DNA from: a virus
IMG/VR virus record: IMGVR_UViG_3300037067_020797
Location: 1-64,000 of that record
DNA length: 64,000 nt
Direction: 5' to 3' (one strand)
Positions 18,925 to 19,320 of the stretch are shown piece after piece. The stretch's first letter is position 1; the number at the start of each line of letters is the position of its first letter. The translations under genes were made by a program, and so were the position numbers. A model generated the notes under the pieces. That model was given only the letters and a program-made list of their open reading frames with translations, did no database searches and was not told the DNA's origin.

Positions 18925-19060
18925 ATTTAAATTCTCATAGCTATACAATTTTTTAAAAATTATTTGATACATATATAACTTATTGATTAGGCGCCAAAGC
19001 TAACGTTTATCGATGCTACACAGTCTTGTGACCAGCCAGGAAAGAGTCAACATATTTTAT

Positions 19061-19290
19061 TGCTGCTGTTCTCTGCAGGCGTCTCGACGTGTCAGGTCTC
19101 ATGGCCGGCTTAAGCGGCCAGGGATCCAGCTGACATGCGGGCCCGGGTGAATAACTGACGCCCGGCGTACGGAGCGACCGAAGTTTGAGCGAGCTGGCGA
19201 GCGAAAACTGAGGAAAGCCGAAGGCTTCAGCGAAGTACGCGAATCTCAGTTATTCACCAACCTTTTCCTTATTGCGGTTCGCAATAAAGT
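19061..19290. ncRNA. GC-rich, highly structured non-coding island (candidate stable RNA, strand undetermined)
   Basis: About 60% GC in a roughly 33% GC background with no ORF. Local hairpins GGCCG-GCTTAAG-CGGCC, AAGCC-GAA-GGCTT and TTATTGCG-GTT-CGCAATAA. 12-bp long-range pairing GTGAATAACTGA (19147-58) / TCAGTTATTCAC (19246-57). The 5' arm lies in the loop of the CCGGG/CCCGG hairpin, so a pseudoknot is possible. Confidence 0.35.
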
Positions 19291-19320
19291 TGTCTTTGTT
19301 GTAGACAAACCACACTATAG

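Follow-up and report, generated by a model that had tools for sequence, protein, structure and literature searches.

Here we describe a noncoding element that lies close to a retron-type reverse transcriptase (RT) gene in the IMG/VR virus record IMGVR_UViG_3300037067_020797, of which a 64-kb stretch, positions 1 to 64,000, was analysed (the window). The window has an overall G+C content of 34.4% and looks like part of a large uncultured phage. Within it, a GC-rich block at 19040-19300 had been proposed, in the original prediction, to be a free-standing structured RNA with pseudoknot potential. Comparison with related loci from viral and metagenome contigs (L001, L002 and so on) revealed an RNA-type structure under selection, a panel of Type II restriction-modification words that is likewise selected, linkage of such panels to one clade of phage retron-type RTs, and their fast turnover.

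The noncoding unit and its structured 5' handle

Read along the minus strand, the locus consists of bpMoxR, vWA, a 60-aa open reading frame (ORF), the GC-rich block, an inserted plus-strand gene of 141 aa, an 82-aa ORF, a 326-nt noncoding region designated region B, and the RT. The features are as follows.

21041-22216, minus strand: bpMoxR AAA+ ATPase (Pfam bpMoxR; NCBIfam ViaA/RavA-like)
19503-21044, minus strand: vWA protein (Pfam VWA_2; NCBIfam ViaA/RavA-like)
19321-19503, minus strand: 60-aa Cys/His-containing ORF just upstream of the predicted RNA unit, without family match
19314-19343, minus strand: promoter-like site TAGAAA-18 nt-TATAGT, a consensus match only, the -10 overlapping TATAGCTAT
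19291-19307, minus strand: small 5' hairpin, TGTCT-loop-AGACA
19269-19287, minus strand: hairpin hp1, TTATTGCG-AAC-CGCAATAA, of the CG-NNN-CG triloop type
19146-19258, minus strand: long hairpin with a 13-bp closing helix (arms 19246-19258 and 19146-19158), identified by covariation
18985-19146, minus strand: site array, or "natural polylinker", identified by palindrome excess, with equivalents in 15 other phage loci; sites GGGCCC/CCCGGG 19139-19147, CAGCTG 19127, GGATCC 19122, CTTAAG 19109, GCCGGC 19104, GGTCTC 19095, CGTCTC 19080, CTGCAG 19073, ATCGAT 19009, AACGTT 19002 and GGCGCC 18990
18891-18945, minus strand: predicted 3' end of the unit, found by sequence inspection: a second TATAGCTAT (18937-18945), then hairpin ATCGCG...CGCGAT plus TATTTTTT (18891-18926)
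18467-18892, plus strand: inserted 141-aa gene, outside the element, separating the array from the 82-aa ORF
18168-18416, minus strand: 82-aa ORF between the array and region B, kept in relatives
17842-18167, minus strand: region B, a second predicted noncoding RNA directly upstream of the RT, identified by closing-helix covariation
16930-17841, minus strand: retron-type RT, 303 aa from the ATG at 17841 (Pfam RVT_1, 1.3e-24)

With 100-nt windows of 0.57-0.67 between 19050 and 19250, the block has the highest G+C of the 64 kb, exceeding the mean (0.344, sd 0.06) by over 5 sd. Its sole ORF is a trivial one of 45 aa (plus strand, 19013-19150), so the absence of ORFs originally claimed essentially holds. 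The hairpins reported at the outset are present, namely GGCCG-GCTTAAG-CGGCC (19103-19119), CTG..AAGCC-GAA-GGCTT-CAG (~19208-19231) and TTATTGCG-GTT-CGCAATAA (19269-19287), as is the 12-bp pairing of GTGAATAACTGA (19147-19158) with TCAGTTATTCAC (19246-19257), which the pair G19146-C19258 lengthens to 13 bp. The gene context is likewise as described, the block lying downstream of bpMoxR, vWA and the 60-aa ORF on the minus strand and facing the end of the plus-strand 141-aa ORF, and the statement that it is not a 5' riboswitch leader is supported. The block is not, however, free-standing as had been proposed: it belongs to a conserved MoxR-vWA-...-RT module, and it has a rare hairpin type in common with the RT leader RNA 1.2 kb away.

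The window sequence alone does not prove structure. The fold energy differs modestly from that of shuffled sequences (z -2.3 for the plus strand, z -1.6 for the minus strand), and about 0.6 perfect 12-bp inverted repeats are expected in 64 kb by a rough estimate, so that finding one is about chance. It is the relatives that supply the proof. The loci L001, L002 and L035 have the same architecture as the window, with a CTATAG/TATAGCTATAG motif, a small hairpin and a long hairpin. In these four phages the basal helix arm is unrelated (GTGAATAACTGA in the window, AGCGAAAAATCG, ACGCGATTTCCA and ACGACTAATTCA in the others), and complementarity is nevertheless kept: 98% of the cells are paired, compared with 27-42% when the partner is slid, none of 500 shuffles was as good, and 11 of the 13 pairs have changed on both sides. 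By this comparative evidence the predicted 13-bp helix is real and under selection. Hairpin hp1 is also kept in the three relatives, in the form CTATTGCG-NNN-CGCAATAG/GG, i.e. (C/T)TATTGCG-NNN-CGCAAT(A/G)G. Since both the long helix and the TTATTGCG hairpin are retained with compensatory changes, a structured noncoding element, the core of the original prediction, is supported. The CCGGG/CCCGG pseudoknot or switch fared worse, as an equivalent pairing could be drawn in only one of the three relatives (L001). When viral contigs were searched for the exact hp1 pattern, the module turned up only in contigs already known.

The two wobble pairs of the 13-bp helix are G.U only when read on the strand of vWA and the RT, and together with the promoter-like site and the terminator-like hairpin they indicate that the functional strand is probably the minus strand, that of MoxR, vWA and the RT. 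Our best reading of the sequence is that the block forms the core of a predicted minus-strand noncoding unit of ~415 nt, running from ~19307 to 18891. It is headed by the palindromic motif TATAGCTAT (19316-19324), and the second TATAGCTAT motif near its 3' end is complementary to the first; in the minimum free energy folds, for the window as for L001 and L002, the TATAGCTA motifs pair with each other. The interior of the long hairpin comprises 87 GC-rich nt containing CGTACG and CTTCAG, with a G after the 5' arm and CGGGCG before the 3' arm. The 3' hairpin region gave weak minus-strand matches to terminator-containing small RNA models, and its long loop caused it to be missed by the intrinsic-terminator scan.

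The CTATAG/TATAGCTATAG motif occurs at the equivalent place in L001, L002, L005, L006 and L035. It was considered as a general promoter of the phage and rejected, as its contexts elsewhere in the window have no common pattern. In L042 (4660-5800), the 1.1-kb spacer between vWA and the RT is made up of repeated modules, each with CTATAG followed by a CAAAGnCG-NNN-CGnCTTTG hairpin, which suggests several small RNA units per RT.

No known RNA family was recognised. Rfam includes a retron msr model, and none of the Rfam covariance models reached its gathering score in the whole window; at E<=10 only chance-level matches were obtained over 18850-19450, and eight related loci yielded nothing apart from group I introns elsewhere. 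These introns lie at other sites in L035 and L054. The candidates named initially (Y RNA, vault RNA, 6S RNA and ribozymes) thus found no covariance-model matches, and ARAGORN detected no tRNA or tmRNA genes in the window.

Restriction-site arrays and their link to one RT clade

No alignment between relatives is possible for the GC-rich tract 3' of the helix, not even at loci whose neighbouring proteins share 85% identity. The original prediction had taken GCTTAAGC and CCGGG/CCCGG as hairpins, which are indeed present, but had missed that the tract is an array of restriction sites. In the window, 10-15 palindromic hexamers, all distinct, were counted against 4.9-6.7 expected (p 0.025 to 0.005). 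The block had been picked by G+C content, not by palindromes, and in a sliding scan it was the top-ranked 250/300-nt palindrome window of the 64 kb, although the p of 4.6e-4 for the best window, taken across 1275 windows, would not survive genome-wide correction. As the enrichment in the window is modest, the case rests on the family.

Sixteen blocks from independent phage contigs, amounting to 5582 nt, are non-homologous and gave no blastn cross-hits. Pooled, they contain 337 palindromic hexamers, compared with 96.3 +/- 9.4 in dinucleotide shuffles (z 25.5). The same comparison for single loci gave z values of 9.2 (L006), 6.7 (L035), 6.4 (L036), 4.0 (L005), 3.7 (L008), 3.5 (L002), 3.3 (the window, p 0.005) and 1.1 (L001). 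The top palindrome window also falls at the homologous spot of L002/L004, L005 and L006. Palindromes of 4 bp extend to 6 bp in 58% of cases and those of 6 bp extend to 8 bp in only 28%, with 25% expected by chance, which identifies the hexamer as the selected unit. When hexamers were ranked by their recurrence across blocks, palindromes took 20 of the top 21 places, led by CTGCAG (12 of the 16 blocks) and GCATGC (11 of 16).

The arrays are also non-redundant, the site types being more distinct than composition-weighted draws (Fisher combined p 5e-7), with 32/32 in L006, 23/23 in L051 and 20/20 in L054. The L006 array holds 31-32 different palindromic hexamers in ~420 nt with zero repeats, among them the sites of EagI, NaeI, SacI, BamHI, SacII, NarI, XhoI, DraI, NruI, BssHII, NheI, EcoRI, AflII, KpnI, FspI, SnaBI, SmaI, AfeI, MscI, BclI, ClaI, PvuI, SphI, BspHI, PvuII, PstI and others, and L051 has 35 palindromic hexamers, 32 of them distinct, in 317 nt. 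Type IIS hexamers, counted with a pre-listed set of 20, are enriched as well (79 versus 52.8 +/- 6.2, z 4.2), with BsaI and AcuI each represented in 9 of the 16 blocks, an excess for which self-complementarity cannot account. Spacer sequence read on the RT strand is rich in A and C (A 0.27, T 0.20). The arrays are therefore composed of distinct 6-bp palindromes above composition-matched expectation, mostly in one copy each, plus some Type IIS sites. The idea of an RNA designed to be unstructured was not supported, since the mean fold z of -1.6 makes the blocks neither notably unstructured nor strongly structured.

Beside some arrays, single sites are locally amplified: CCTAGG occurs four times in L054 (9020-9165), in four tandem 30-nt repeats with one site each, enclosed by a helix CCATTTTACTA/TAGTAAAATGG, and CCCGGG six times within 80 nt of L008 (15960-16040). 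Outer closing helices can be drawn around the arrays of L006, L036 and L051; they are AT-rich and without comparative support.

Array sites turn over fast. Contigs with an identical 60-aa protein fall into two variants that have the same 5' handle, and all five isolated point differences between the arrays of the window and of L140/L141 toggle a palindrome (CTTAAG/CCTAAG, ATCGAT/ATTGAT, AACGTT/AACATT, a gain of ATTAAT/TAATTA and a gain of ATATAT). The strain variants further differ in the array by a 36-nt indel or replacement. L001 and L026 show only 2 differences in 5157 nt, both inside the block. In the comparison of the window with L140/L141, 30 substitutions are confined to the C-terminal half of vWA (19602-20470, 3.4%), and the remainder of the 6.2 kb hardly differs; this points to a recombination tract or a diversifying region beside the array, so that recombination contributes to the strain differences.

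The RT of the locus matched the PADLOC model RT_XIII (3.7e-75) along with many other retron RT models, and scored 217 bits against NCBIfam retron_St85_RT, below the cut-off of 235. Besides YxDD, the motifs NAxxH and VTG define the retron RT clade, and the translation carries NAEKH, YADD and VTG. Among cultured phages the best relative of this RT is only 33% identical. Directly before the RT start, region B has a closing helix of CCCCACA (18038-18044) and TGTGGGG (17863-17869), with G18037 after the 5' arm, that covaries in five lineages, including L002, L005, L006 and L036, and that has U.G pairs only on the RT strand. To judge from this layout, region B looks like a retron msr-msd RNA in its arrangement; it had no Rfam match.

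The two predicted RNAs resemble each other. Both the 13-bp hairpin of the block and region B have the arm-then-G layout, and region B contains two hairpins of the CAAAGTGCG-NNN-CGCACTTTG type, at 18111 and 17998. CG-NNN-CG triloop hairpins with a perfect stem of at least 6 bp occur three times in the 64 kb, as hp1 and the two in region B. At the related loci, ~31 of 35 CG-NNN-CG hairpins (counted from a listing) lie just upstream of the RT or the array, with the consensus CAAAGnCG-NNN-CGnCTTTG. A leader-sized space upstream of the RT is missing in L035, L054, L056 and L012.

Arrays are limited to one RT clade. An RT-based search returned 80 viral loci, and clear arrays (best-window p < 1e-3) were found at 13 of the 22 closest, a set of phage contigs (34-69% RT identity, 33-42% G+C) that includes repeats of the same contigs; two further loci among the closest have weaker arrays (p 0.004). 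The 58 more distant retron loci had no array (best p 0.0095), nor did 15 MoxR-vWA loci without an RT. Conversely, RT loci without detectable MoxR-vWA still have arrays (L044, L049, L053, L057). The array lies between vWA and the RT in the window, L001/2, L005/6, L035/36, L044 and L051, and at the other loci 2-3.5 kb downstream of the RT, immediately before a glycosyltransferase gene. Without exception it is found on the strand of the RT, and in the downstream arrangement a terminator scan placed an intrinsic terminator on that strand after the array in 5 of 8 loci.

A region of similar modular logic was seen in Staphylococcus phage MarsHill (L139 2340-3600; MW248466.1 213839-215099), where 1.2 kb of noncoding sequence upstream of a retron-like RT contains 4-5 modules, each with a hairpin CATTATATGAATACGTATAATG at its head followed by a variable, GC-richer segment. 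It was rejected as a palindrome array, being made of repeated hairpin modules.

Possible functions of the arrays

The closest known systems are the retrons. The window RT scores best against retron RT models and has the NAxxH, YADD and VTG motifs; it adjoins predicted structured RNAs that have the retron form, with covarying inverted repeats at their base and a G following the 5' arm; and its neighbour genes are possible effectors. To our knowledge, MoxR-vWA is not among the known retron effector types, and no PADLOC retron effector model matched it. Unlike known retrons, the system is encoded by a virus, a large and apparently lytic phage, has two RNAs per RT, and includes a hypervariable array of 160-800 nt that lies mostly outside the closing helix and that we know here from its sequence alone. 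Known retron DNA has a methylase site as its sensor. In retron Ec86/Eco1 the product DNA carries a single Dcm site, the system being triggered when a phage enzyme methylates it, and a Dam-sensing retron is cited in the same work (bioRxiv 10.1101/2023.08.16.553469). In both Ec86/Eco1 and the arrays, a recognition site of the restriction-modification type in RT-made DNA would be the functional element, but Ec86/Eco1 has one site in a DNA stem and serves bacterial defence, whereas an array has tens of different sites, resides in a phage, and is assumed to take duplex form.

Other systems are further removed. In the defence systems DRT2 and DRT9 an RT copies a neighbouring structured RNA, as is proposed for the arrays, and the DRT2 product reportedly becomes double-stranded. 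Repetitive cDNA copied from the DRT2 RNA is reported to assemble a gene (PMC12039810). The window RT is, however, marginal to the Drt2 and Drt3a models (24-37 bits against cut-offs of 390 and 200), and the arrays have no repeat-generating template logic. MoxR-vWA systems are sometimes linked to diversity-generating retroelements (PMC7159879), in which, as here, a phage RT adjoins hypervariable sequence. The variable tract of the arrays is noncoding, in contrast, and there was no Avd-like family match; a diversity-generating retroelement was rejected, as the 64 kb contain no template/variable repeat pair. Ocr and ArdA are protein mimics of DNA that block restriction, mainly by Type I enzymes; they share the proposed decoy logic, but the array as a decoy candidate would be a nucleic acid with real Type II sites. 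With synthetic multiple cloning sites the arrays have in common many different 6-bp sites in one copy each with short spacers, and differ from them in being natural, syntenic, evolving and without a match to vector sequence. Full-text literature searches found no description of restriction-site arrays, MoxR-vWA-linked phage retrons or nucleic-acid restriction decoys, and we found no earlier account of natural sequences with the build of a cloning polylinker. The framework of RT and RNA is thus a variant of the retron theme, but we cannot place the site array in any known class of sequence element.

The reading that we favour, with a probability of about 0.45, is that the unit is a retron-like noncoding RNA, the 3' part of which is a panel of restriction-modification sites that is copied or displayed as bait, either as a decoy or as a sensor. 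The module would run MoxR - vWA - 60-aa ORF - array RNA - 82-aa ORF - RT leader RNA - RT. The 5' handle of the array RNA, with its two small hairpins and long hairpin, resembles the leader RNA of the RT, which may bind the array RNA through the common hairpins, and the GC-rich, fast-evolving 3' tract has a panel of Type II recognition sites as its selected content. Once copied into multicopy DNA or an RNA:DNA duplex, the panel would offer its sites as bait to sequence-specific DNA enzymes. As a decoy, the bait would soak up host restriction enzymes; as a sensor, it would be a many-site form of the single methylase site in known retron DNA and might detect methylases or nucleases of the host or of rival phages, with MoxR-vWA as the putative responding partner. 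More doubtful is the fuller version, a retron-derived device that turns a near-complete and updated site catalogue into multicopy DNA and acts as an anti-restriction decoy or as a universal methylase/nuclease sensor coupled to MoxR-vWA. If true, this fuller version would introduce a new retron type and add a new principle to phage-host conflict. The bait reading, if it holds, would represent a nucleic-acid-based strategy of counter-defence or sensing as well as the first role for a retron-type RT in a virus, and the arrays would be a readable record of the enzyme specificities met by a phage lineage.

Several points weigh against the bait reading. Most of the window's sites lie 3' of the 13-bp helix, whereas a retron template lies inside the closing helix; nothing but the outer TATAGCTA pairing, which is weaker, would enclose these sites. 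With region B the RT has a canonical-looking leader of its own, so the array RNA is not needed as a template. A palindrome present once in single-stranded DNA is no duplex substrate, and a second strand or a hybrid must therefore be assumed; moreover, the catalytic turnover of restriction enzymes makes a pure decoy model less convincing. The window's own enrichment is modest (p 0.005-0.025), its closest relative, L001, is almost without sites (z 1.1), and about a third of the loci of the RT clade have no clear array within the flanks fetched. Finally, the 20 Type IIS hexamers are sites of commercial enzymes, and only 5 of the 20 drive that signal. Even if the mechanism is wrong, a signal of z ~25 confined to one RT clade demands explanation.

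In an unlikely alternative, the RT plays no part and the array works within the phage chromosome as double-stranded DNA, either as a methylation-sensing switch of the neighbouring promoter or as a place where a break by any host enzyme sets off recombination, replication or gene gain. Duplex DNA is what Type II enzymes act on, and the genomic copy is its only known form; a foreign gene was inserted at the array edge; strain variants show the 36-nt indel or replacement in the array; and C-to-T changes at CG account for two of the site losses, as would be expected if the cytosines were methylated. Outside the array, however, the window shows no palindrome avoidance (observed/expected 0.97), and the array hexamers occur at their expected frequency across it (0.97-1.02; e.g. 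CTGCAG 21 times and GGATCC 14 times). Protection of the genome presumably comes from elsewhere, and as a chromosomal target the array is not unique; as its sites occur dozens of times elsewhere in the window, the specific proposal of a unique genomic cut site was rejected as unlikely. A chromosomal role would leave unexplained why arrays are strictly linked to a single RT clade, keep one orientation, have terminators on the RT strand and are accompanied by the common RNA hairpins, and spacers that are A/C-rich on the RT strand are not predicted by a function neutral to strand.

We consider it just as unlikely that the transcript works as RNA, the idea with which the block was first put forward, or, in a variant of it, that self-complementary hexamers pair copies into a scaffold or condensate, perhaps with Ro60-like and vault-like proteins. 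The helix and hairpins are under selection, single-copy palindromes would favour pairing between molecules over pairing within them, and the window encodes a Ro60 protein (TROVE + vWA), a major-vault-protein homologue and a PARP. Y RNAs and vault RNAs are comparable in this gene company and in that the ends of the RNA pair. They gave no covariance-model matches even at E<=10, though, and the array is tied to the RT rather than to those genes; a Y-RNA-like or vault-RNA-like partner was not found by the Rfam scan, beyond which no search was made. Selection for pairing strength would favour palindromes of 8-10 bp, yet extension past 6 bp is at chance (28%), the asymmetric Type IIS words are enriched too, and the blocks are not strongly structured (mean z -1.6).

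Less probable again is a mutational by-product, in which cut-and-rejoin events or hairpin opening at a recombination hotspot leave palindromic scars without function. The lack of sequence homology among relatives and the indels and gene insertion at the locus would fit, and a few fill-in-like words are present (CCGGCCGG, CGCGCGCG, AATTAATT). Scarring would not, however, yield near-complete, non-redundant panels (32/32, 23/23 and 20/20 distinct), nor keep to one strand beside conserved RNA hairpins across phages with RT identities of only 34-50%, and the non-palindromic BsaI and AcuI words are not accounted for.

Slightly lower still in our estimate stands an ordinary intergenic region, a terminator plus a leader with GC-rich hairpins, whose palindromes in the window arose by chance. 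The window's p of 0.005-0.025, which fails genome-wide correction, and the lack of an array in L001 would allow this. But a region chosen by G+C nevertheless ranks first for palindromes in the 64 kb, the same holds for L002/L004, L005 and L006, and at a pooled z of 25 the explanation is strongly disfavoured at the family level. Contamination by a cloning vector or synthetic polylinker, suggested by the resemblance of tracts such as TCTAGAGGTACCCGGG in L052 to man-made polylinkers, has a negligible chance of being correct, given no match in 72,556 plasmids or 50,697 phage records, 16 different sequences without common stretches at syntenic positions in many metagenomes, and recovery of the identical locus from independent runs.

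Gene neighbourhood and phage context

Synteny of MoxR, vWA and the RT was seen at more than 15 viral loci and constitutes a conserved gene string in this phage group. The window DNA itself had no match in the 50,697 phage and 72,556 plasmid records. The 60-aa ORF is 84% identical in L001, 83% in L002, 47% in L035 and 42% in L036. By tblastn, the 82-aa ORF is 54% identical in L001, 39% in L002 and 46% in L035, and it is without a match in Pfam, PADLOC, NCBIfam and PHROG.

The 141-aa gene is missing at L001, L002 and L035. It is preceded by a sigma-70-like promoter (18418-18446, plus strand) with a 10/12 consensus match, and the former ATG of the 82-aa ORF survives as ATGAGAATTTAA (18931-18942, minus strand), the insertion having occurred directly after that start codon. 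The gene looks like a recently gained moron.

Downstream of the RT, a Cys-rich protein of 299 aa (15545-16444, minus strand) is the best-conserved product of the module, with 65-73% identity where the RT has ~50%; it is without a family match and has no relative among 185,579 reference bacterial and archaeal genomes. In a 215-kb phage contig the vWA gene is in three pieces (L002 7260-9700, the same as L004 12396-14834), separated by two ORF-bearing insertions of ~1.2 kb that are probably mobile introns with endonucleases.

Elsewhere, the window encodes a fused beta/beta' multisubunit RNA polymerase as one ORF of 2025 aa (23567-29644, plus strand), in which the catalytic motif NMDFDGD is visible. 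The Ro60 homologue (TROVE + Ro60 vWA) lies at 36937-38784, the major-vault-protein homologue (shoulder + repeat domains) at 11991-14444 and a PARP+WGR protein at 61690-62898, all on the minus strand. An RNA-repair and NAD set, comprising PNKP, RlaP, a T4 Rnl1-like ligase, a second RNA ligase with an OB domain and NAD synthase, occupies 43160-48525 and 55826-58503 on the same strand.

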